23,848 bases of DNA from Promethearchaeota archaeon (GTDB taxonomy: Archaea; Asgardarchaeota; Lokiarchaeia; Sigyniarchaeales; SOKP01), in assembly GCA_048938445.1 (NCBI GenBank), contig JBHLME010000066.1, forward strand, positions 1 to 23,848. Reading direction: 5' to 3'. Both the position numbers and the translations under genes were made by a program. Below, one piece after another: positions 7,483 to 22,123 of this stretch (positions are counted from its first letter, which is position 1; each line of letters opens with the position of its first letter). Under the pieces are notes generated by a model. It was not told where the DNA came from and did no database searches. It saw only the letters and a program-made list of their open reading frames with translations.

Positions 7483-8607
7483 TTATTCTTTATCGTTCAC
7501 TATCTTATTATATATAATTAATAATAATATTCCTATTAAAAATCCAATTAATACATTGAACATAAAACAAAAAATAGCTGAAATCAAAATGATCGGAAAT
7601 TTCTTTTTATTAAAATCTTTAAATGAGACTTTTCCCAATAAAATTGCTGTATAAAAAAGCATCGCACCTAAAATTGCTTGTGGAAAATTAGTAAAAAGCA
7701 TTAGTATTGATTGAGAAAAGAATAGTCCAAAGATAATCTCCATTAAACCTTCCAATATCATTGACCCACCAGTCCTTGCACCGAATGCATATTGTGCTGC
7801 AAGACCCCCAGAGCCATGACATAAAGGAATTCCTCCAAAAAATGGATTGACTAAATTTATTAGACCCATATTAAAAGAAAGAGAGTTTGCATCTACTTTA
7901 CTTTCTGGAAATAAATCCCTTATCAATGCAACCGTGGCAATCATTACATTTGTCAAAGTCAAAAATAATTGAGCAAATCCTGCTAATACCATCCCAATTA
8001 CTAAATTTATAAAATCTGGAATATAAAAATCAATTCGAGGGATGTTAAAAATTAAATTAGATAATGATACTTGTCCGTTAATAAAAACGAGAAAAATTCC
8101 TAAAAACATGAGTATAATTGCTGAAGGAACGTGTTTACTTTTCATTAATAGTAAAATAATTCCAATGGCAATAAATCCAAGTATTAAATTATCCAAGAGT
8201 AATAATATTGAAGCCCATCCTAATATGAAGGCTAAACCCAATTGAATCCCTCGCACTGAAATTATAGGCACCTTTTTTACTATTGCATTTAATTTTTTTG
8301 AGAATCCTAAAACAGTCCAAACGATCCCCGTCCCAAAACCCGTCGATATTACCAAGGTAGGCGTCCAGTTATTAGCTAATGCCACCGTTCCAATAGTTTT
8401 TTGAGGTTGAACTGGCAGTGGCAAGTTGTATCTGATACCTAAAACGATATTCGTGATGCCTAAACAAAGAAACATACCTGCAGGATTTAGACCAACTATT
8501 GAGATGTATCCAATCATAAAAGGAATTAAAGTGCCCCAATCTCCAAGAGAACCACCAAATTCCCTTATTGAAAACTTTCTAAACTTCTTTCCTTGAATTT
8601 CTTCCAT
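7483..8607 (-). CDS. MOT1-family molybdate/tungstate (oxyanion) transporter
   Basis: Multi-TM protein with E.GGSLGDWGT, PLPVQPQK, RGIQLGL and GGIPLCHGSGGLAAQYAFGART, typical of the MOT1 family. Confidence 0.9.
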   Translation of the reverse strand: MEEIQGKKFRKFSIREFGGSLGDWGTLIPFMIGYISIVGLNPAGMFLCLGITNIVLGIRYNLPLPVQPQKTIGTVALANNWTPTLVISTGFGTGIVWTVLGFSKKLNAIVKKVPIISVRGIQLGLAFILGWASILLLLDNLILGFIAIGIILLLMKSKHVPSAIILMFLGIFLVFINGQVSLSNLIFNIPRIDFYIPDFINLVIGMVLAGFAQLFLTLTNVMIATVALIRDLFPESKVDANSLSFNMGLINLVNPFFGGIPLCHGSGGLAAQYAFGARTGGSMILEGLMEIIFGLFFSQSILMLFTNFPQAILGAMLFYTAILLGKVSFKDFNKKKFPIILISAIFCFMFNVLIGFLIGILLLIIYNKIVNDKE

Positions 8608-8675: not shown

Positions 8676-9998
8676 CTATTTAACTTGGAAAAAGTGATCT
8701 TCAAACTCGGGTTTATCTTTGTATTTTTGCATAAAGATCATTGGTGCCTTGTCTAAATTTTTAAAGATATATGAAGGGGCTCTAATTCCTGCCTGTCTAA
8801 GTGCTCCTTGGATTTCTTCTACTTCAGGAGGGCATCCTTTGATTGTTATTAATTCCTTGATATTCTCATTATCTTTATTCTTATTAATTTGACACTGACC
8901 AACCAAGATAGTCTTGTTCATTCCTGCGGTCGGTTCTAAGCACTTTCCTGTTAATACTTCGACATTATCAAAGGGTTCTCCTTTAAAAGCAGATTTAATG
9001 GCAACAAGGAGGACACCATTCAATGCTGAACAATACGTGCACATAGATTTATCGTATTTATGATATTTAATGCCAGTTATTCCTGCTTTTTGGTACGGGA
9101 GTGGCATGTCATCGTTTCCTGCATAAACGTAATCCCATTCGTGTGGAGATGCTAAATCTTCAATTTTTTCTCCAATTATTTCTATATCAGATAAATCTGT
9201 CTTACGGTTCCTACTTTTTGCGGCTATAACTAAATGTGGAACAGCAATGGGATCTATTCCTAATAAATTTGATCCAACAAGATCCGCTGATAATATATCT
9301 GTAGAAGCTACTAATATATTACTTCTATGTGCTTTTCCATCCATTGCAGGACCCCTTTCAAGGGTATAAATTCCATCAAGTATCGTTAAACTGGGAGGAA
9401 TTTTATTAGCTAATTGAGCTACATTATAATCAAGATCTCTTTCTGGGTCAGCACTATGAAATTTTTTCCTCGAGGGAATGCTAATCAATCCTTTAAGATT
9501 TTTAATTCCTAAGCTTACCACGCATTGAGCATGTGTTTTTAGAGCAGGAAGATCGATTAAAAAATCTGAATTTAACATGTCAGCATTCATTTTTACAGTT
9601 AAATCTTCTGTCAAATTAATTTTTTCAAATGGCCTATCAAAAGTATTATAAACTTTAATACCATGCTTCTTTATGAGAGCATTGTATCCAAGTTTTTCAA
9701 AAGCATCAGCAGGAGTTTCTTTATCTTTGGGATTTTCCGTGACGATTCCCTCACCAACAGTAATATCATTTACTCCTTTTTCTTTCAAGAGAGTAACAAC
9801 ATCTTCAACCACTCGGGATGTAGTAAGAACCTCCCACATTGGAAAAATGCAATGCCGATTCCAATAGACAATATTAGGTTTGATAAATACTTTCATATCT
9901 GGTTTTAAATGTTCAAATCCCTTCGCTAACTCGATTGCTTTACGGACTGATTCCAATGGCTCTTCATATTTTACAATAGATACTATTGAATTACTCAT
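8676..9998 (-). CDS. DUF362 domain-containing protein with C-terminal Fe-S binding domain
   Basis: VFIKPN, TVGEG, LPALKTH, SLGIKNLKG, ILDG..LERGP and ASTDILSAD. C-terminal CTYC...GQC...GCPP. Confidence 0.88.
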   Translation of the reverse strand: MSNSIVSIVKYEEPLESVRKAIELAKGFEHLKPDMKVFIKPNIVYWNRHCIFPMWEVLTTSRVVEDVVTLLKEKGVNDITVGEGIVTENPKDKETPADAFEKLGYNALIKKHGIKVYNTFDRPFEKINLTEDLTVKMNADMLNSDFLIDLPALKTHAQCVVSLGIKNLKGLISIPSRKKFHSADPERDLDYNVAQLANKIPPSLTILDGIYTLERGPAMDGKAHRSNILVASTDILSADLVGSNLLGIDPIAVPHLVIAAKSRNRKTDLSDIEIIGEKIEDLASPHEWDYVYAGNDDMPLPYQKAGITGIKYHKYDKSMCTYCSALNGVLLVAIKSAFKGEPFDNVEVLTGKCLEPTAGMNKTILVGQCQINKNKDNENIKELITIKGCPPEVEEIQGALRQAGIRAPSYIFKNLDKAPMIFMQKYKDKPEFEDHFFQVK

Positions 9999-10111: not shown

Positions 10112-13042
10112 TTAAAAAACGATTCCTTTTCTTCGAGAAAAGTATTTGACGAATTCAAAGGAGACTATACATATCAAAGAAATTAAAAAACATACTAACC
10201 AATCTAATGCCGTGAGATACATTAGGCTAAAAGTATAGATATAGGGTTCTTCGTCTGAAGTAAATTTTAGCAATATTTGAAAATATGGAATGTACATTAG
10301 TGCTATTAACAAACAAAAAAGAAATAATAATATTGAATATAAAAAAGTATTATGATCTTCTTTAAAAGCTCTAATTAATGACTTATTTGGACGTCTAATT
10401 TGAAGTACTAAGAATGATTCACAAAAAAATAGAACAACCATTAACATTGTCAAAGTTTTTGCAATATATCTCTCACTTCCAGTATAAGTAGTAGTTGAAT
10501 ATAAGTAGGCATCATTGAGAATTCCAAAATTAAAATTTTCATTAAAAACAGGATAAATTTGTGTATAGCATATAAAATAGGTGATACTCATTGTTATTGA
10601 AAGTAGTATGCCAAATGATACCATCAAAATTAATGTATTTCTGGATAAAATTTCTTCTGAGTCTTTCGGTTTTTCTTTCATGACATCCTTAGAGGTTTTA
10701 TCAAATGTAATACCTAAGGCTGGAAATACATGCACGGTAATAGATAAAAAAACCCACATTAGATAATAAGTAGATTTTGGACTGACCCAATAAGGAAGTC
10801 CCAATCCTATATAAAAAATTACTTGAACTATTCCTTCAAAAATATTAGTACACACGAAAAATACAACAAGTGATCGAATTCTGGCAAAAATCCCCCTTCC
10901 TTGCTGGATACCTGTAACGATTGAATTAAATGAATCATCGGAAATGACCATATCCGCTGCTTCTTTTGCAACATCAGTACCTGTGATTCCCATTGCGATG
11001 CCAGCATCAGCTAAATTGAGTGCTAATGCGTCATTCACACCATCACCAGTCATCGCTACAACTCTCTTTTCTTTTTTATATTTTTTAACAATTTCTTGTT
11101 TATGTTCTGGAGAAACCCTTGCGAATACCTTGATTTTATCAAAATCGGCTGAATTTATAGCATCCTTTATGTCTTTCCCTTCAATTGTGATCTCATCTTG
11201 ATTTTTAATTATAGAAATTTGTTTTGCGATTGATTTCGCTGTTATTGGTGAATCTCCTGTAATCATTACAACATCGACTCCAGCTTCATGACAAGCCTCG
11301 ACAGATTCCTTTACACCTTCTCTGGGAGGATCCAATATAGTTACAAAACCTAAATATGTCAAGTCTGATTCAAATGTATCTCTATCATCATCTGAATGAG
11401 ATGGTAAAGCATAAAATTCTTTATAACATAAGCTTAAAATTCTATAACCTTGACCAGCATAAAAATCAACTTTTTCCATTATTTCATTTTTTAGTTTCTC
11501 AGAAAACTCTACATTCGCATCTTTATATAAAATTTTTGAGCATAATGGAAGCAAGACTTCTGAAGCACCTTTCGTGAATGAGTAATGTTTTTCTTCCCTT
11601 CTGTAAATTTTAGTCATTCTTTTAATTTTCGAGTCAAATGGATATTCCTTGATTTGTTCATAGTCCTCTAAAATATAATCTCCCATACCCTTTTGGAATA
11701 ACACCATTAAAGCTCCTTCCGTCGGAGATCCTACTACATTCCATGTAGGAATGATTTTAGAACCCACTTCAATTTCATTTTTAACAAGCGCCGAATTGTT
11801 ATTCAAGAAACCTGAAATTAAAACGAATTTTAAATGCGGATGATTTTCTACATGTTTTACAAATACAGGATTCTTGGGATCATCCATTTTAATGATCTCA
11901 CCTTCAGGAGAGTAACCACTTCCAGTTACTTTAAAAATTGAACCATTTGTCCATATATTCTGCACGCACATTTGATTTTTAGTTAATGTTCCAGTCTTAT
12001 CGGAGCAAACTACACTAACTCTTCCAAGACTGTCAACAGAGGCTATATTTCGAATAATTACTCCTTGATGAGCCATTGCTAAAAGTCCCGTAAGGAGCAC
12101 AATTGTAGTCACTAATGGTAAATTTATAGGCATTAAATCCATTGTAGAATTCAAATAACCAACAGGATCGAAAATTTCACTATTGGGATTAAAATTTATA
12201 ATAATAAGTTGAATTAATTTTATTAACATTAATAATCCCCATAATCCCATTACCATTATCCCTAACCATTTACCAAAATGATTCATTTTTTGGCGAATTG
12301 GAATATCACTTGTACCTGCTAATTCTAATTGATGAGACAATTTTCCTATCTCCGTATTTGGGCCTGTCTTAACTACTACGGCTTTCCCATTTCCTATAGT
12401 GACATAAGTACCATAAAATACCATATTTTTTCGTTCTCCAATAGAAATTTCCTTATCAAAATTGAGTGCCCTCCCATCAGATAATTTCTTTGCAGATTCA
12501 CTTTCTCCTGTAAGAGAGGCTTCATTTGCCTCCATATTTGCGCATTCAATTATTCTTGCATCCGCCGGGATTTTATCTCCTTGATTTATAACTAAAATAT
12601 CTCCTACTACTACATTTTTCGTTGTAATTTCAATTTTTTGACTGTCTCTTATTATTGTAGCTGTAGGTGCCGATAATTCGCGTAATGCATTTAATTTTTT
12701 TGTTGCTCGATATTGTTGGAATATTGCGATAGAACAATTTACCAATACAATTAATAGTGTCAATCCTATAGTAACCAGAGCGCTTCCTCCACCAACTAAA
12801 GATAAAATGAACATGATAAGGGCTCCAATTAGGTAAATAACTATAAGCCAATTAAATAAGGGTGCTAGATACACTTTTATAAAGCCTTTAGAAACTTTAG
12901 GGATTTCATTGAAACCATATAATTCTAAGCGTTTATTAGCTTCTTCCGTGCTCAATCCTTGTTTAGAATTTGTTTCAAGTTCTTCAAAAATGGTATTCAA
13001 TTCCCGGGCGTAATATGGAATTTCCATTGAAATATCATCCAA
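10112..13042 (-). CDS. P-type ATPase, P2A-like scaffold with atypical transport site (paralog 1)
   Basis: LTGES, CSDKTGTLT, KGASE, DPPR, MITGD, ARVSPEHK, MTGDGVNDA and about 10 TM segments. TM4 reads MDLMPINLP. The start is TTG 13042 or ATG 13027. Confidence 0.95.
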   Translation of the reverse strand: MDDISMEIPYYARELNTIFEELETNSKQGLSTEEANKRLELYGFNEIPKVSKGFIKVYLAPLFNWLIVIYLIGALIMFILSLVGGGSALVTIGLTLLIVLVNCSIAIFQQYRATKKLNALRELSAPTATIIRDSQKIEITTKNVVVGDILVINQGDKIPADARIIECANMEANEASLTGESESAKKLSDGRALNFDKEISIGERKNMVFYGTYVTIGNGKAVVVKTGPNTEIGKLSHQLELAGTSDIPIRQKMNHFGKWLGIMVMGLWGLLMLIKLIQLIIINFNPNSEIFDPVGYLNSTMDLMPINLPLVTTIVLLTGLLAMAHQGVIIRNIASVDSLGRVSVVCSDKTGTLTKNQMCVQNIWTNGSIFKVTGSGYSPEGEIIKMDDPKNPVFVKHVENHPHLKFVLISGFLNNNSALVKNEIEVGSKIIPTWNVVGSPTEGALMVLFQKGMGDYILEDYEQIKEYPFDSKIKRMTKIYRREEKHYSFTKGASEVLLPLCSKILYKDANVEFSEKLKNEIMEKVDFYAGQGYRILSLCYKEFYALPSHSDDDRDTFESDLTYLGFVTILDPPREGVKESVEACHEAGVDVVMITGDSPITAKSIAKQISIIKNQDEITIEGKDIKDAINSADFDKIKVFARVSPEHKQEIVKKYKKEKRVVAMTGDGVNDALALNLADAGIAMGITGTDVAKEAADMVISDDSFNSIVTGIQQGRGIFARIRSLVVFFVCTNIFEGIVQVIFYIGLGLPYWVSPKSTYYLMWVFLSITVHVFPALGITFDKTSKDVMKEKPKDSEEILSRNTLILMVSFGILLSITMSITYFICYTQIYPVFNENFNFGILNDAYLYSTTTYTGSERYIAKTLTMLMVVLFFCESFLVLQIRRPNKSLIRAFKEDHNTFLYSILLFLFCLLIALMYIPYFQILLKFTSDEEPYIYTFSLMYLTALDWLVCFLISLICIVSFEFVKYFSRRKGIVF

Positions 13043-13198
13043 TAAAATGTAATTTCTAATTTTATAATTAAAAATATTATATAGTAATAATAAAAATAGT
13101 TATGCTATTTATTATTATTGGAATGAGATATGACTAATCTTTAATTATAATCAATAAGATCTTAAAACTATAAAAAAAGAAAGGAAAATTAATGGGAA

Positions 13199-16060
13199 TT
13201 AAAAAACAATATTTTTCTTTCTTGCGATAAATTTAATTATTTCTATTCCAAATAATCCTGGAAATGAAAGAAAAATACATATTAGCCAATCATATGGGCT
13301 GAGAAAGAGAAAATTCAATTGAAGGGGAAGATTCCACTGATCATTAATTACTGTATTTACAGGATATGAAAATAAAACGAGTAGTACGTGAATACCTAAA
13401 GTAAACATACAAATCGTAAATAAAGTAATATTAAATTCTTCTTTAATGCTTTTTATTATCGATTTATTTAATCTTCTAACAGCCCATATAAAATTTGTTT
13501 CTGTAATAAATACGGTAGTAAAAAACATAGTTCTTGCCTTCATCTCCAATATTTCGCCCTCTTTTATTGTTACAATTGATGGCGGAAAATAACTTAATGA
13601 TGGATTAATATTGAATTCATTTAAGGGAATAAAATTTCCTAAGGTTAATTGGAGTGCGAATACGACTCCTATTCCCATCAAGAAGGAATGAATTATTAAA
13701 ATAATCCAAATGTTTTTGTTAAGTATTTCTTCACCATTTCTAGGCATTTCATTCATAATATCCTTTGGAGGTTTATCAATTACAAGCCCGAGAGAAATTA
13801 ATCCGTGTATAATTGTAAAGATATATACATGTTGCCAATTTGATGAGAATATTTCGAATATTGGAATAAAACTATAAAAAAAATAAATAAATCCTTCCAT
13901 CAAATTTAAACATATAAAGAAATATATGAGTAATCTAATATTTGAAAAGATGCCTCTTCCAATTTGAATTCCTTTCACGATTGAGGTGAAATTATCATCT
14001 GTAAGGATGATATCTGCAGTTTCCTTAGCTATGTCTGTTCCTTTAATGCCCATAGCTATACCTATTTCAGCTTTTTTAAGTGCTAATGCATCGTTAATTC
14101 CATCACCAGTCATCGCGACAACTTTTTCCATCTTTTGATATTGTTCCACAATTAATTCTTTATCAGAAGGATTAACTCGAGAATAAACAGTTATGTTTTG
14201 AAATTGATTTCTTTTAAAATATTTAATGCTTAATCCTTCAACAACCATCTCTCTTTCAGATTCATCAAGTATTCCTATGCTTGAAGCGATTGTTTTAGCC
14301 GTAAGTGGATGATCTCCGGTTATCATTATTACTTTTATTCCTGCATACTTGCATACCTTCACTGATTGTTTAACCTCAAATCGAGGAGGATCCATTATTG
14401 AGACAAATCCCAAGTATATGAGATTTTTTTCAAGTTTTTCTCTATCTAATTCATCATATTTATCCAAGTTTTTATAGGCAATGCTCAAAATTCTATAACC
14501 TTCTGAAGCACGTTGAAAAATCATATCAACAAGTTTATATCTTATTTCATCATTCATTTCTTCGACCTTTCCATCAATTTCAATAAATGAAGAATCTTCA
14601 AGAATGATCTCTGCTGCACCCTTAGAGAACAATAGATATGAATCCTCTAAAGTATCTAATTTACAAATTGATGACATTTTTTTTAATTCAGAGGTAAATG
14701 GAAATTCTCTTATAACTTTAAAATTTTTTCGTATATTATCAATTTTATATCCTGCTTTTTCAGCAAGCACTAATAATGCTGCTTCTGTGGGAGAACCAAT
14801 AATTTGTTTAATAGCCTTTTGAAATTTATGATTAATAGATTTATTAATTCCCTCGAAAAGTAATTCAGCAGTATTATTTACTACGATCGAAGCAATAAAT
14901 TTTTGAAAATTTGGATTGTCGCTAAGATCAATCATATTTCCATCTAGATAAATTTGTCCATTAATTTCATATCCAGAACCATCAACATCATATTCTTTTT
15001 CATTTAACCAAAATTTTTGCACGCACATTTCATTTTTTGTAATAGTCCCCGTTTTATCAGAACATAATACTGAAACGCGTCCTAGTGATTCAATGGAAGT
15101 CAGATTTTTGATAATAACACCACTTTGTGCCATTTTAAGAACTCCTGTTATTATCACTAGAGTTGTTACTAAAGGTAAATTAACTGGTACAATATTCATG
15201 GCTATTAAGATTGAATCAATTAAAACGCGATTGATGTTTTTATCCAAAAAAATGATTTGATAGATGATTAGAATAAAACAATTTATAAATACAACGCTTC
15301 CTAAGATATATCCTAACCGATTTAATTTTTTAACTAATGGGATTTCTTCGATACTTCCCATTTCATTTAAAGAATAAGAAATTTTACCTATTTCTGTCTT
15401 AGTTCCTGTATTAGTAACTAAAATCTTTGCTTTACCAGTATCTACAAAAGTTCCCATGAATACCATGTTTGTTTGATGATGAATAAAAACATCATTATCA
15501 GAAATTATTTCACAATTTTTCTCAACAGGTTCACTTTCACCTGTTAAGGGAGCTTCTTCAATGGTTAAATCGCTCGATTCAAAAATTCTACCATCCGCAG
15601 GTATTTTATCTCCTGATTTTATTATGATAATATCTCCAGGTACGAGATCTTTATTCAAAACTTGAATCTTATGACCATTTCTTATAACTGTTGCTTTTAA
15701 AGTCGAAATTTTCTTTAAAGATTCAAGAGCCTTTTGAGCTCTGTATTGTTGTATAATAGCTATAGCAGAATTAATAAATATAACAAATAAAGTAATAATT
15801 GTTGAGAAATAATCACCCAGTAATATTATGATGAGTGATGATATTATCAGAATAATGATCAAAAAATTGAAGAAAGGAGATAAATATATTTTCCAATATG
15901 ATTTTTTGACTTTTGGTAGTTCATTCAAACCATACTTTAATTGTCGTATGTTAATTTCATTTGGATTTAATCCCGTTTCAAGATTTGTTTTAAAATAATA
16001 AACTAATTCTTCTATCGATTGATTAAAAAATAATTTTTCATTAATAGATGATGAGATCAT
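13199..16060 (-). CDS. P-type ATPase, P2A-like scaffold with atypical transport site (paralog 2)
   Basis: LTGES, CSDKTGTIT, KGAAE, DPPR, MITGDH, SRVNPSDK, MTGDGINDA and about 10 TM segments. TM4 reads MNIVPVNLP. Confidence 0.95.
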   Translation of the reverse strand: MISSSINEKLFFNQSIEELVYYFKTNLETGLNPNEINIRQLKYGLNELPKVKKSYWKIYLSPFFNFLIIILIISSLIIILLGDYFSTIITLFVIFINSAIAIIQQYRAQKALESLKKISTLKATVIRNGHKIQVLNKDLVPGDIIIIKSGDKIPADGRIFESSDLTIEEAPLTGESEPVEKNCEIISDNDVFIHHQTNMVFMGTFVDTGKAKILVTNTGTKTEIGKISYSLNEMGSIEEIPLVKKLNRLGYILGSVVFINCFILIIYQIIFLDKNINRVLIDSILIAMNIVPVNLPLVTTLVIITGVLKMAQSGVIIKNLTSIESLGRVSVLCSDKTGTITKNEMCVQKFWLNEKEYDVDGSGYEINGQIYLDGNMIDLSDNPNFQKFIASIVVNNTAELLFEGINKSINHKFQKAIKQIIGSPTEAALLVLAEKAGYKIDNIRKNFKVIREFPFTSELKKMSSICKLDTLEDSYLLFSKGAAEIILEDSSFIEIDGKVEEMNDEIRYKLVDMIFQRASEGYRILSIAYKNLDKYDELDREKLEKNLIYLGFVSIMDPPRFEVKQSVKVCKYAGIKVIMITGDHPLTAKTIASSIGILDESEREMVVEGLSIKYFKRNQFQNITVYSRVNPSDKELIVEQYQKMEKVVAMTGDGINDALALKKAEIGIAMGIKGTDIAKETADIILTDDNFTSIVKGIQIGRGIFSNIRLLIYFFICLNLMEGFIYFFYSFIPIFEIFSSNWQHVYIFTIIHGLISLGLVIDKPPKDIMNEMPRNGEEILNKNIWIILIIHSFLMGIGVVFALQLTLGNFIPLNEFNINPSLSYFPPSIVTIKEGEILEMKARTMFFTTVFITETNFIWAVRRLNKSIIKSIKEEFNITLFTICMFTLGIHVLLVLFSYPVNTVINDQWNLPLQLNFLFLSPYDWLICIFLSFPGLFGIEIIKFIARKKNIVF

Positions 16061-16191: not shown

Positions 16192-17133
16192 TTAAAGTTT
16201 TTTTTTAGGATCACCAAGGTTCTGTTTTAAACCTTGATATTTCTTTCGAATAGTCGTACTTGAAAATCCAGTTGTTTCTTCAATTAGCGATTGTGTAAAA
16301 ATTTTTCGTTTATCTACTAATTGTCCAACATAATAAACTAAGCCTGCAGTAAAAGCTTTATAATTTAGGTTTTTTAAATCTTTATAACTAATTTTTTGAA
16401 GCAAATCATTTGCCATTAGAAGCATTTCTATCTTAGATTTCTCATATTCAGATGTATCATTAAAAAATTCATTTACTTTATTAAATGGAATGGAATTCAA
16501 ATTCTTTTGAAATAAGATCTTTATTTTTTCTTTTATATCACGTTCTATGTCCGATTCTGTCTTTATCTTCTTCTTTCTTTTCTTTTCAACATTTTTAATT
16601 TTAAGCATTGCATTGTTTAACATTTTCTTATTTATCTTATGGCCAAGTTCATTACATACTTCGATAAAATGTTCTATTCGAATATTTGTCGTATCTTTAA
16701 CTTCCATCCAAATAATAGCTAGAAAAATGATTACCATGTTTTGATAGGGTTTCCGATATTTTTTACTATAAATTAGATATCGATCCTTAATTTCTTGAAA
16801 TTTTACTTGATCTATATTCAAACCAATTCCATATCCTTTTAATAAGTCAATAGTTTTTTTCTGTTCGCTAAATGAACCAACTGAATCACGAAACCATTTT
16901 TCTAAAGTTAAAATTTTATTATATTGTTCCTTTATTTTAGGATCTTGGGTTGCTTTTGAATCTCTTCTTCTTATACCCCTTTCATAATCTCTTTGTGAAT
17001 CTGAAAATTCACTTATAATGCTTGATTTATCAAAATCCATTCCGCCATCTAAGACTATACCACAATCCTGGCAAACAAGGAATCCTGCTTCAACTTTAGT
17101 ATTCTTATGTAAACATTCTTGGATTTCGTTCAT
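16192..17133 (-). CDS. Divergent transcription initiation factor IIB (TFB)-like protein
   Basis: N-terminal Zn ribbon CLH...GFLVCQDCGIVLD. C-terminal cyclin-fold/HTH AFTAGLVYYVG...FTQSLIEETTGFSSTTIRKKY matches the TFB pattern AAA.YIA...TQ..IA...GV...TIR..Y. Length is TFB-like. Confidence 0.78.
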   Translation of the reverse strand: MNEIQECLHKNTKVEAGFLVCQDCGIVLDGGMDFDKSSIISEFSDSQRDYERGIRRRDSKATQDPKIKEQYNKILTLEKWFRDSVGSFSEQKKTIDLLKGYGIGLNIDQVKFQEIKDRYLIYSKKYRKPYQNMVIIFLAIIWMEVKDTTNIRIEHFIEVCNELGHKINKKMLNNAMLKIKNVEKKRKKKIKTESDIERDIKEKIKILFQKNLNSIPFNKVNEFFNDTSEYEKSKIEMLLMANDLLQKISYKDLKNLNYKAFTAGLVYYVGQLVDKRKIFTQSLIEETTGFSSTTIRKKYQGLKQNLGDPKKKL

Positions 17134-18694: not shown

Positions 18695-19621
18695 TTATTT
18701 TAATTTCAGTTTTATTTGTTTTGCTCTGCTACGGAGTGTTACTTCCGTAATCTTAGCCACATCAGCTACATTTGATTGTGTCTTTCGTATTGCTCCTTCT
18801 TTCGCGGCAATATAAATGCAGGCTGCTGCTAGACCTTTGGGATCTTTACCGGTTCTTTTTAATCCGTTTTTTGATGCTTGGATTAGCATGTTTATTGCGC
18901 ATTTTTGTATTTTGATGGGTAAATTCAATTCATTTCCAAACCTAAAGACTAATTTTTCAGCTGTAATTGGTTGATATGATAAATTAAGTTCTGGTAAAAC
19001 ATCTCTGATTATCATTGCTAAGCTCCTATGAACTGTCCTTCTTGGTGTTAAGGATGCCTCGCACACTTCATCTAATAAACGAGGGAAATCATGAACTCGA
19101 ATTGCAGCATAAAGTGAACCCGCAATAAAACCATTAATCGAGCGCCCCATTGTTAATTTTTTTTTTGCCACTAAACTATAAATTTTCCATGCGGTTTCAG
19201 CAATGTATTCAGGAATATTTAATTTGGATGTTAACATTTTTAATTTAGGTTTAGCTTCCCAGAAATTACGTTCTATACTGGAAATTAAAGAATTCTGAAT
19301 CTTGGATAATCTAGAAAATAAAGCTTGTTCTTTAGGACCAATTGATTTGCCCTTTGAGTCTATTTTAGTTGTAGGTAGCATTGTTCTAGGTCCAAAGTCT
19401 CTCCATCGCGGTTCAGTTCTACGACGATTTTGTATTTCTTCTATTGTATATGCCCTTCTTTCATTTCCTACATAGGTCCTTTCAAATATCATACCACAGT
19501 TTAAACATACCTTATTTCCATCGCGAGATTCTATACTGGGAATGTTACAACATTCCTTTTTACCTAAAAGTTCATCAGTATCCTTATTTAGTCGTATCAG
19601 ATTCCTATATAGCTCATTCAT
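18695..19621 (-). CDS. tfb: Transcription initiation factor IIB (TFB)
   Basis: Zn ribbon CC...GNKVCLNCG, reader-like ERRAY, ERN, and cyclin repeats GRSINGFIAGSLYAAIR, GKDPKGLAAACIYIA and TQSNVADVAKITEVTLRSR. Confidence 0.93.
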   Translation of the reverse strand: MNELYRNLIRLNKDTDELLGKKECCNIPSIESRDGNKVCLNCGMIFERTYVGNERRAYTIEEIQNRRRTEPRWRDFGPRTMLPTTKIDSKGKSIGPKEQALFSRLSKIQNSLISSIERNFWEAKPKLKMLTSKLNIPEYIAETAWKIYSLVAKKKLTMGRSINGFIAGSLYAAIRVHDFPRLLDEVCEASLTPRRTVHRSLAMIIRDVLPELNLSYQPITAEKLVFRFGNELNLPIKIQKCAINMLIQASKNGLKRTGKDPKGLAAACIYIAAKEGAIRKTQSNVADVAKITEVTLRSRAKQIKLKLK

Positions 19622-20401: not shown

Positions 20402-22123
20402 ATGATGCTAATCCATAGAATTAATTTAAAAAACAATTCAATAAAAACAAAAGAGATTACTCTTGATTCTCAATATTATTTGTTAGGAGGAAGAGGCTTA
20501 ACATCACAAATTATTCTTGATGAAGTAGATCCAGATTGCGATCCACTTGGAGAGAATAACAAAATTATTATAGCTAATGGGCTTTTAACTGGTAGTTCCT
20601 TTCCTTGTTCTGCACGAGCTTCAGTTGGTGCAAAAAGTCCTTTAACTAATGGGATAAAAGAAGCTAATGTCGGTGGTAGGCCTTCGATGATGCTTGCTTT
20701 ACATGACATTCGTGCTTTAATTTTAGAAAAAACTTCTCCTATACTTAAGTTGATCTTGATTAAAAATGAAGGTATTACAATGGTTTCTGCTGAAGAATAT
20801 AAAGGTTTGGGTAATTATGAGCTTCATTCTAAGTTATATGATAAATATGGAAAAAAAATTGGTATTTTTTCCATTGGTCCTGCTGGAGAATATATGATGA
20901 AATCAGCGAGCGTTGCGGCTAATGATTTAGAAGGATATCCTAGCCGTCATGCTGCGAGAGGGGGATTAGGAGCAGTAATGGGCTCGAAAAAAATTAAAGC
21001 AATTGTAATTTTCCCTTCAAAAAATCCAAAATTTAAATACCATGACATTAAGAATTTCAAAGAAATCTCGAAATCTTTCACGAAAACATTAGTAGAATTA
21101 AAAAAAACTCTCTCTATTTACGGTACAGCATCACTAACTAAACCAATGAGCGAAATTGGAGGTTTACCTACTAAGAATTTTAGAAATGGTTCTTATGATC
21201 ATGCAGATGATATCTCTGGTGAAACATTGCATGAATTAGTTATTTCCAGGCAAGGGAAAAAACAGATTCCTTGTAGTCCTACTTGCGTGATAAGATGTTC
21301 AAACTATATCGTTGATGAAAATGGAAATCATGTAACCTCAAGTTTCGAATATGAAACAATCGCATTAAATGGTTCGAATTTAATGATAAATGATTTGGAT
21401 AGTTTAGCTAAAATAGATCATTTCTGCGATGATGTTGGTATTGATACAATAGAATTTGGTGGAACTATGGGTGTTGTAATGGATTGCAATAAACTAGATT
21501 GGGGGAATTCAAAAAAAGTTATTGAAATTTTAGATAAAGAAATAAGAAATAATACTGAATTAGGTAGATTATACGGAAATGGTGTTCAGCATGTTGGTAA
21601 GGTATTAAACGCAAAAAGAATCCCTCAAGTAAAAGGACAAGGTCTTTCTGGATATGATCCTCGAGTCTTTAAAGCTATGAGCGTGACTTATGCCACATCT
21701 CCAATGGGCGCTGATCATACAGCGGGTCCAGCAGTAGCTGGAAGAAAAGCAAAATCAGATGTGGATTATGGGGAAATATGGGAAAATTCAAAAAAACTTG
21801 ATTTATCTTACGAATTACAAATTTATATTGCTGTTATTGATTCATTGGGCTGTTGTTATTTTATTGGACCTAGTTATGAAAATTTAGAAATAATGGCAGA
21901 TGCAATCAATGCATTGAAAGGATTAAGATTATCTAGAGAAGATCTCATAAAAATAGGAAAAGATATCATTAAATGTGAATTAAGCTTTAATGAAAAAGCA
22001 GGTATAACAAGTAATATGAATCAATTACCAGAATTTTTTTCTAAAGAAGTTTCAATTCCAACAGATTTAAGAGTATCTTTTCAAGATCGAGAATTTAAAA
22101 AGTTTTGGAATAAATTAGAATAA
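20402..22123 (+). CDS. aor: Aldehyde:ferredoxin oxidoreductase family protein (tungstopterin, 4Fe-4S)
   Basis: GGRGL, KSPLTNGIKEAN.GG, IGPAGE, RGGLGAVMGSKKIKAI, CSPTCVIRC, EYET, DDVGIDTI, GADH and DSLGCC. Confidence 0.93.
   Translation: MMLIHRINLKNNSIKTKEITLDSQYYLLGGRGLTSQIILDEVDPDCDPLGENNKIIIANGLLTGSSFPCSARASVGAKSPLTNGIKEANVGGRPSMMLALHDIRALILEKTSPILKLILIKNEGITMVSAEEYKGLGNYELHSKLYDKYGKKIGIFSIGPAGEYMMKSASVAANDLEGYPSRHAARGGLGAVMGSKKIKAIVIFPSKNPKFKYHDIKNFKEISKSFTKTLVELKKTLSIYGTASLTKPMSEIGGLPTKNFRNGSYDHADDISGETLHELVISRQGKKQIPCSPTCVIRCSNYIVDENGNHVTSSFEYETIALNGSNLMINDLDSLAKIDHFCDDVGIDTIEFGGTMGVVMDCNKLDWGNSKKVIEILDKEIRNNTELGRLYGNGVQHVGKVLNAKRIPQVKGQGLSGYDPRVFKAMSVTYATSPMGADHTAGPAVAGRKAKSDVDYGEIWENSKKLDLSYELQIYIAVIDSLGCCYFIGPSYENLEIMADAINALKGLRLSREDLIKIGKDIIKCELSFNEKAGITSNMNQLPEFFSKEVSIPTDLRVSFQDREFKKFWNKLE

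Follow-up and report, generated by a model that had tools for sequence, protein, structure and literature searches.

Tandem P2-type ATPases with a rewritten cation-binding site belong to a conserved clade of pumps centred on Asgard archaea

The stretch of DNA analysed here, called the window, covers positions 1 to 23,848 of contig JBHLME010000066.1 from a Promethearchaeota archaeon (assembly GCA_048938445.1). It has a G+C content of ~30% and belongs to a genome of 4.63 Mb in 256 contigs, with a completeness of 96.5% and a contamination of 8.2%. Two neighbouring genes on its minus strand, A and B, encode paralogous P-type ATPases in which the canonical cation-binding site has been rewritten. 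They belong to a strongly conserved clade of P2-type pumps, whose cargo is probably a small cation other than Ca2+. Throughout the text we take the Ca2+ site I and II assignments and the SERCA residue numbers as given, and equivalent positions were located through the alignment to LMCA1 and through representatives of the PEGL type. The features that carry the analysis are the following.

13199..16060, minus strand: gene A (P0002), a complete P2-type P-type ATPase of 953 amino acids, upstream member of the pair (open reading frame, ORF, and translation).
10112..13042, minus strand: gene B (P0001), paralog of A, 976 amino acids from the TTG at 13042 (ORF and translation).
13043..13198, minus strand: A-B spacer of 156 bp, AT-rich, with oligo-T runs just past the stop codon of A (sequence read directly).
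15176..15187, minus strand: PVNL motif of A in transmembrane helix 4 (TM4), in place of PEGL; Val lies at the position of the Ca2+-ligand Glu and Asn at that of the Gly (reverse-complement translation and LMCA1 alignment).
12119..12130, minus strand: TM4 motif PINL of B (reverse-complement translation).
13805..13807, minus strand: TM6 His752 of A (CAC), in place of the Ca2+-ligand Asp (translation and LMCA1 alignment).
10730..10732, minus strand: TM6 His of B (CAT; reverse-complement translation).
13895..13909, minus strand: TM5 LNLME of A, in which the site-I ligands Asn719 and Glu722 are kept (translation).
10835..10849, minus strand: TM5 TNIFE of B (translation).
13496..13507, minus strand: TM8 ITET of A, with Glu854 kept (translation).
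10415..10426, minus strand: TM8 FCES of B (translation).
15044..15058, minus strand: phosphorylation motif DKTGT of A (translation).
11987..12001, minus strand: phosphorylation motif DKTGT of B (translation).

An earlier inspection of the letters by a model, here called the sequence-only reading, had pointed to these motifs, and reverse-complement translation confirmed them all at the positions given. The strings MDLMPINLP and FLSITVHVFP are found in the translation of B, MNIVPVNLP and YIFTIIHGLI in that of A. For gene B, the ATG at 13027 (971 residues) is a more likely start than the TTG, and the database gene call P0122 also has 971 residues. The two proteins share 39% identity (381 of 983 aligned positions). 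Each contains the motifs TGES, DKTGT, KGA, TGD and GDGxND as well as the Pfam domains Cation_ATPase_N, E1-E2_ATPase, Cation_ATPase, Hydrolase and Cation_ATPase_C, and the P-type superfamily model TIGR01494 scores them at 275 and 297 bits for a cut-off of 62. By motifs and domains, both paralogs thus look catalytically intact, as had been supposed. Aligned to Listeria LMCA1, A has PVNL where that pump has PEAL, and the His where it has the TM6 Asp. The AlphaFold2 model of A, built on a 97-sequence alignment (predicted local distance difference test 85.6; predicted template modelling score 0.81), has the ten transmembrane helices of the P2 architecture. Its TM4 helix is broken at residues 289-294, as expected at a canonical binding site.

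Homologs were drawn from database clusters, the top 120 being taken for each of A and B. All are ~950 residues long, with identities of 55-65% to A (the window's own entry aside) and 62-79% to B. Their alignment holds 120 A-type and 120 B-type sequences; P0122, the window's own B, was left out. All 240 close homologs carry the TM4 Pro and Asn, the TM5 Asn and Glu, the TM6 His and the TM8 Glu, and the residue between the TM4 Pro and Asn is Ile, Val, Phe or Leu and in no case Glu. The TM6 His is also invariant in two further alignments, A1 with 29 rows and A2 with 97 rows. A simple pattern search for the catalytic motifs in 120 A-type and 121 B-type homologs found TGES in 111 and 119, DKTGT in 117 and 121, KGA in 120 and 120, TGD in 119 and 121, and GDGxND in 120 and 121, respectively. 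Where a source is named, the homologs are labelled Promethearchaeota or assigned to the Loki-, Thor-, Hod-, Hermod-, Odin- or Heimdall- groups, that is to Asgard archaea; one is labelled just 'subsurface metagenome'. Conservation of the PxNL/His pair had been set beforehand as a test of the idea that the same substitutions in two diverged paralogs reflect selection. Because the substitutions are invariant in all 240 homologs and mark a monophyletic clade, selection, and not decay, is what these sequences argue for.

The clade was delimited by searching A against 1.84 billion cluster representatives and reading the TM4 motif in the best 150. P-x-N occurs in 33 of these best 150, and the full-length ones also have the TM6 His. 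Two close relatives depart from the pattern: P0257 has PIMIP in TM4 and keeps the His, while P0288 has PVSIP and has lost it. Below ~515 bits the matches turn abruptly to PEGLP with the usual TM6 Asn..Thr-Asp. In a FastTree phylogeny (138 full-length rows and 900 columns, with the P1B pump of the genome as root), 31 rows of the PxN type join with a Shimodaira-Hasegawa-like support of 100 on a stem of 0.34, and this PxN/His clade is nested among PEGL-type prokaryotic pumps. A second tree was computed with IQ-TREE (LG+G4, quick search) after removal of the TM4 and TM6 motif columns. Its 71 rows comprise the 31 of the clade, 36 random PEGL-type pumps and 4 pumps of the same genome, and a single branch again separates the clade from all other rows, with a support of 100 in the Shimodaira-Hasegawa-like approximate likelihood ratio test. 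A and B lie inside the 31-row clade in different subclades, A together with two representatives labelled Helarchaeota, and the duplication therefore appears to be old. A look-up in a protein atlas returned generic P-type clusters alone.

Signature positions were compared between 30 representatives of the clade and 101 of the PEGL type. Because the TM6 His and the TM4 Glu served to separate the two groups, the comparison is circular in these two columns; the PEGL type has the TM4 Glu in 101 of 101 by definition and His at the TM6 position in 0 of 101. The TM4 position after the hydrophobic residue is Asn in 29 of 30 clade members, whereas the PEGL type has Gly in 90 of 101 and Asn in none. The presence of this Asn and of the TM6 His in the 240 close homologs and in none of the 101 goes beyond a chance pattern. 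At TM6 position 748, the Asn of Ca2+ pumps (96 of 101 PEGL-type representatives) is replaced by Tyr, Phe, Val or Ile, and at position 751 the common Thr (89 of 101) by Val, Thr, Ala or Ser. The TM5 Glu is present in all 30, and TM8 has Glu in 29 of 30, compared with Glu in 45 and Gln in 51 of the 101. TM2 carries Gln (27 of 30) where the PEGL type has Glu (94 of 101), and TM1 carries Pro (27 of 30) in place of Gln (93 of 101). The hinge reads GDGxNDAL in 27 of 30; in the PEGL type the last position is Pro in 96 of 101 (GDGxNDAP). Furthermore, of 20 fetched loci that come from other GTDB families, all 20 have the TM6 His and the TM5 Glu, 19 the TM5 Asn, 19 the TM8 Glu and 16 the TM4 Asn.

Both the sequence search and Foldseek are led by LMCA1, SPCA1 and SERCA, and the closest NCBIfam models are those of the PMR1 and SERCA types. 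The NCBIfam models rank in the order P2A, other P2, P3, P5, P1B and P4 for the window proteins, and the same order is found for three further clade members and for two PEGL-type controls. The window proteins reach 456 and 479 bits with TIGR01522 (cut-off 798) and 432 and 460 bits with TIGR01116 (cut-off 703), compared with 778 and 732 bits, respectively, for the PEGL-type control P0273. With the P3A model TIGR01647 they reach 337 and 351 bits for a cut-off of 615.5. A and B fall below every NCBIfam equivalog cut-off and are 220-340 bits short of the Ca2+ ones. They possess the P2 architecture and lack the other marks of a P2A pump, namely the TM4 PEGL Glu, the TM6 Asn and Asp ligands and a score at equivalog level. 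In line with the earlier suggestion, A and B are probably not ordinary pumps for Ca2+, Na+/K+ or, in the P3A manner, H+.

Besides A and B, this genome has genes for a PEGLP pump, a PEGLI pump, a P3A-like pump (PVALP) and P1B pumps; the A/B pair therefore adds to the usual set and replaces none of it. The P3A-like ATPase, of 824 residues with PVALP in TM4, is encoded on contig C104 at 26501-28450 (minus strand). The transport function of prokaryotic P3A pumps is still undetermined according to the relevant passage of a review (PMC10654040). Among 151 sampled genomes of the window's phylum, 108 have a match at E <= 1e-150 and 90 have one of at least 572 bits. All 20 loci of at least 572 bits fetched from other GTDB families are clade members, and at least 90 of the 151 genomes carry the clade. 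Copies of the A type (at least 980 bits) occur, within these genomes, in the window's own GTDB family only. In 17 of the 23 matching genomes of that family, A and B are adjacent on the same strand, always with A upstream. Three of the 23 have the two copies on different contigs, and in the remaining three one copy was seen, with a contig end in two of those. The gap between A and B widens to ~1 kb in 4 of the 17 pairs, and in the one that was fetched (L143) a VTT/DedA gene fills it. A second tandem pair is found in another family (G025), and most other families of the phylum have a single copy.

Two further archaeal phyla were sampled at 251 genomes each, with 5 and 1 matches of at least 520 bits; the 4 of these that were inspected are PEGLP pumps. 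A search with the clade alignment was keyed on the generic DKTGT and GDGxND patterns; it returned at least 79 loci of ordinary P2 pumps from many phyla and was set aside as a survey of the clade. Among the matches listed from that search, P-x-N occurs in 0 of 81 TM4 motifs. All named members but one are labelled Asgard; the exception, P0256, is Korarchaeota per its depositor, a label which could not be confirmed. The clade is likely confined to Asgard archaea. No partner gene common to several families was seen among the neighbours of the 20 loci, and a Cdc50-type gene was looked for in this neighbourhood alone. Subtilase and PanB genes flank the pump within one GTDB family only.

From the residue pattern we consider it probable (roughly 0.6) that the clade is a new P2-type subfamily which runs a normal cycle on one rebuilt, site-I-like pocket and moves a small cation other than Ca2+. 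The three residue classes of site II are gone: Ile, Val, Leu or Phe stands in place of the TM4 Glu, an aromatic or aliphatic residue in place of the TM6 Asn, and His in place of the TM6 Asp. Site I (TM5 Asn and Glu, TM8 Glu) is retained, and its conservation exceeds that seen in ordinary prokaryotic pumps. The changes of the TM4 Gly to Asn and of the TM6 Asp to His are near-invariant in the clade. In addition, the changed TM2 Glu and TM1 Gln positions are presumably part of the cytoplasmic cation-entry funnel. In such a scheme, A and B would run the ordinary Post-Albers cycle of phosphorylation and dephosphorylation and would carry one small cation per turn in a pocket lined by two Glu, the His and one or two Asn. 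The role of the His would be that of a ligand or of a built-in counter-charge, or would combine the two; A and B would be old paralogs kept side by side in this lineage. A combination of His, carboxylates and amides is typical of Mn2+, Fe2+, Zn2+, Co2+ and Ni2+ sites and could equally form a proton site. A borderline divalent metal of this group or H+ would suit the pocket best; the metal is our tentative guess for the cargo, and H+ we would guess to be less likely. In its broader form, the proposal is that of a new subfamily of P-type ATPases whose cargo or mode of coupling has no known counterpart among P2 pumps (e.g. a His-centred single-site transition-metal or proton pump), ancient in Asgard archaea and with a fixed A/B pair in one lineage; we rate this at about even odds.

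Several observations weigh against this proposal. Residue chemistry is all that the cargo assignment draws on. Metal-related neighbours are few and not independent, with ZnuA within 3 kb in 2 of the 20 loci (one family) and a ZIP gene adjoining 1 of the 20, numbers too small to serve as evidence for a metal. His- or Cys-rich tails are absent from A and B, as seen by direct reading of both sequences. Lastly, the TM4 Asn is not universal: the 4 exceptions among the 20 loci belong to a single GTDB family and read PITIP (twice), PISIP and PIMIP. These four (L124, L125, L128 and L130) and P0257 have Thr, Ser or Met at the Asn position and keep the TM6 His; the PIMIP forms have an Asp directly after that His. 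Such variants could reflect a sub-specificity inside the clade.

It seems doubtful that A and B have remained alkaline-earth pumps which transport a single Ca2+ (or Mg2+) in each cycle at site I, with the His only tuning affinity or proton counter-transport, in which case the label 'Ca2+-transporting ATPase' would be roughly right. The conserved TM5 Asn and Glu and TM8 Glu would suit such a pump, the best-scoring models and structures are those of Ca2+ pumps, and single-site Ca2+ pumps do exist (LMCA1, SPCA1). These, however, use site II, which is the site destroyed here, and the TM6 Asp, which we take to bridge both Ca2+ sites, is His in every member. The change of the TM2 Glu to Gln falls at a position which we assume to be part of an acidic entry funnel. 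Moreover, the shortfall from the Ca2+ equivalog cut-offs is large, and the genome already has its PEGLP and PEGLI pumps. Not very likely either is a proton pump, in which the TM6 His and the buried TM5 and TM8 Glu would take up and release H+ in analogy to the Asp-centred P3A site. The hydrophobic residue at the TM4 Glu position recalls P3A pumps, including the PVALP protein of this genome, His titrates near neutral pH, and a site for two metal ions is no longer left. Yet the defining TM6 Asp of P3A pumps is absent, the P3A model scores below the P2A models, a P3A-like pump is already encoded in the genome, and two invariant Glu together with Asn would exceed the needs of a single proton site.

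The sequence-only reading had also raised a lipid or organic cargo and a bearing on the origin of P4 flippases. A lipid or bulky organic substrate would move along the TM1-2-4-6 groove as in P4 pumps, either by convergence or because the clade is a remote prokaryotic relative of them, and we regard this as very improbable. In the P4 motif PISL, as presented in the part of the literature that deals with it, the Ile is part of the hydrophobic gate and the invariant Ser binds the lipid phosphate (PMC11225554). The clade shares the gate Ile, or has Val in its place, and has a polar, hydrogen-bonding Asn at the Ser position; PISIP itself occurs at 1 of the 20 loci of other families. In structural comparison with cluster representatives of the PDB, the Z-score to the P4B flippase Neo1 (28.9) is not far under the best P2 match (PfATP4, 32.6), with LMCA1 at 31.0, MgtA at 30.0 and AHA2 at 28.6, but all ten-helix P-type classes lie at Z 25-33 and the fold alone assigns no class. 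The Foldseek top 50 are all P2 pumps, and identity in the structural alignments is 27-31% to P2 chains and 18-21% to P4 chains. P4 flippases have DGET and usually a Cdc50 subunit, as stated in the same source (PMC11225554). A and B read LTGESE in the A-domain, the TGES which the sequence-only reading had itself noted, and neither a Cdc50-like nor another conserved partner gene was found near the 20 loci. With the P4 model TIGR01652 (cut-off 431), the window proteins reach 110 and 116.5 bits, further clade members 74-113 and PEGL-type controls 91 and 96; the clade is therefore no closer to P4 than Ca2+ pumps are. Its place in the tree is among PEGL-type pumps, and conserved buried Glu in TM5 and TM8 suit an ion pocket. 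Nothing points to a lipid or organic cargo, and a special link to P4 is not supported. The clade is probably not a forerunner of the eukaryotic lipid flippases; the shared Ile is all that ties the two, and the genome's P3A-like pump has a parallel to it in the Val of its PVALP. PINL and PISL probably came to resemble each other by convergence on a hydrophobic residue, which is found in P3A proton pumps as well. The boldest version of our proposal, in which the hydrophobic gate with the polar TM4 residue and the His pocket handle a lipid head group or an organic cation as a prokaryotic parallel to P4 and P5, remains a long shot.

A different kind of alternative, compatible with any cargo, is that A and B act only together, as a heteromer or with one regulating the other. 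The adjacent same-strand arrangement with A upstream in most genomes of the family would fit this, as would the second tandem pair in G025. However, common descent would by itself produce synteny inside one family, most of the phylum's other families have a single copy, and every catalytic and site residue is kept in both proteins. The ~1 kb gaps, one of them holding an unrelated VTT/DedA gene, also speak against obligate partnership, which we judge improbable.

Six long representatives (P0267, P0291, P0327, P0352, P0369 and P0380) were considered as fused A and B proteins and rejected. They combine a P1B-like N-terminal half with a P2-type C-terminal half. These proteins of 1516-1706 residues contain two DKTGT motifs each; the P2 half has PEGLP in 3 of the 6, and the pattern search found no TM4 motif in the other 3. 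The P1B-P2 fusions lie outside the clade and are silent on A-B binding.

The surroundings of the pair contain further genes. Directly upstream of A lies a 313-residue ORF (16192-17133, minus strand) without a Pfam family and with an N-terminal Cys-pair zinc ribbon. Sub-threshold TFIIB zinc-ribbon matches were obtained for the window copy and for 4 of 4 scanned orthologs (11-21 bits, cut-off 29), and part of the sequence weakly resembles repeat 2 of the canonical TFB encoded at 18695-19621 (E 0.008). An ORF of ~320 residues occupies the same place in 9 of 11 fetched loci of the same family, by size and position only, the four scanned ones aside. The 313-residue protein may be a divergent TFB paralog. 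Downstream of B, on the minus strand, follow genes for a DUF362 protein (8676-9998) and for an MFS_MOT1 molybdate-transporter-like protein (7483-8607), and an aldehyde:ferredoxin oxidoreductase gene is located at 20402-22123 (plus strand). An ORF of the DUF362 size (440-444 residues, judged by size only) follows B in 6 of the 11 same-family loci. In a locus of another GTDB family, a 661-residue ORF adjoining the pump (L117:8865-10847, plus strand) matches PF09743, E3 UFM1-protein ligase 1, with 41.6 bits (threshold 23.2; E 1.5e-10). Members of this family are otherwise known from eukaryotes.

Few transporters are understood as well as the P-type ATPases. A large and strongly conserved clade in the archaeal lineage closest to eukaryotes, with the canonical binding site rewritten in a coordinated way, is of interest. 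The subfamily appears to be uncharacterised, as the sequence-only reading had supposed: full-text literature searches found no published description of the PxN/His clade. A survey of Asgard transporters reports, in its section on such proteins, 'orthologs of a putative Ca2+ ATPase (TC 3.A.3.2.21)' in all five proteomes, entries which may belong to this clade (PMC7997004). Databases and the section concerned of that survey treat Asgard P2-type pumps as Ca2+ pumps (PMC7997004). If this label is wrong, the inferences on Asgard Ca2+ signalling which were built on it weaken. Identification of the cargo would give the P2 scaffold a new specificity. The analysis also takes away an attractive connection to the origin of eukaryotic lipid flippases, for which it found no support. 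As summarised in part of a 2023 review, the families P1-P6 are recognised, one of them added since 1998, and more prokaryotic families are expected (PMC10654040).

The clade can be set against several known systems. With the P4 flippases (Drs2, ATP8A1/2, Neo1), which are also marked by a conserved TM6 Asn at the lipid phosphate and by a TM5 Lys, it shares the Ile after the TM4 Pro, a polar residue after it and the P-type fold (Z 26-29), and it differs in having TGES, Asn instead of Ser, and no partner gene found to be conserved across families. In P1B-4 pumps of the sCoaT type, a membrane His serves as an internal counter-ion, as noted in one passage of the 2023 review (PMC10654040). This is a functional analogy for the TM6 His only, since class and topology differ and the P1B models score far lower. 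The P6 pumps (Mycobacterium CtpE family) are described in the same review as keeping the TM4 PEGL and having Ile at the TM6 Asp position (PMC10654040). By that partial description, they resemble the clade as a prokaryotic offshoot similar to Ca2+ pumps which has lost the TM6 Asp, and they are set apart from it because the clade is without the PEGL Glu and has His in TM6.

P3A H+-ATPases (AHA2, Pma1) likewise have a hydrophobic residue at the TM4 Glu position, and a single-site pump without a counter-ion is conceivable. P3A pumps depend on the TM6 Asp, however, and at this position the clade has His. The P2A pumps (LMCA1, PDB 6zhf/6zhh/9euq; SPCA1/PMR1; SERCA) share with A and B the P2 domain set, the ten helices, the catalytic motifs and Foldseek template modelling scores of up to 0.84. 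The TM5 Asn and Glu are also kept, and the TM8 Glu is that of two-site pumps. Unlike P2A pumps, the clade has P[ILVF]N[LI]P instead of PEGLP in TM4 and hydrophobic residues followed by His instead of Asn..Thr-Asp in TM6. Furthermore, its TM2 Glu has become Gln, its TM1 Gln has become Pro, the hinge GDGxNDAP has become GDGxNDAL, and the proteins form a separate clade with a support of 100.

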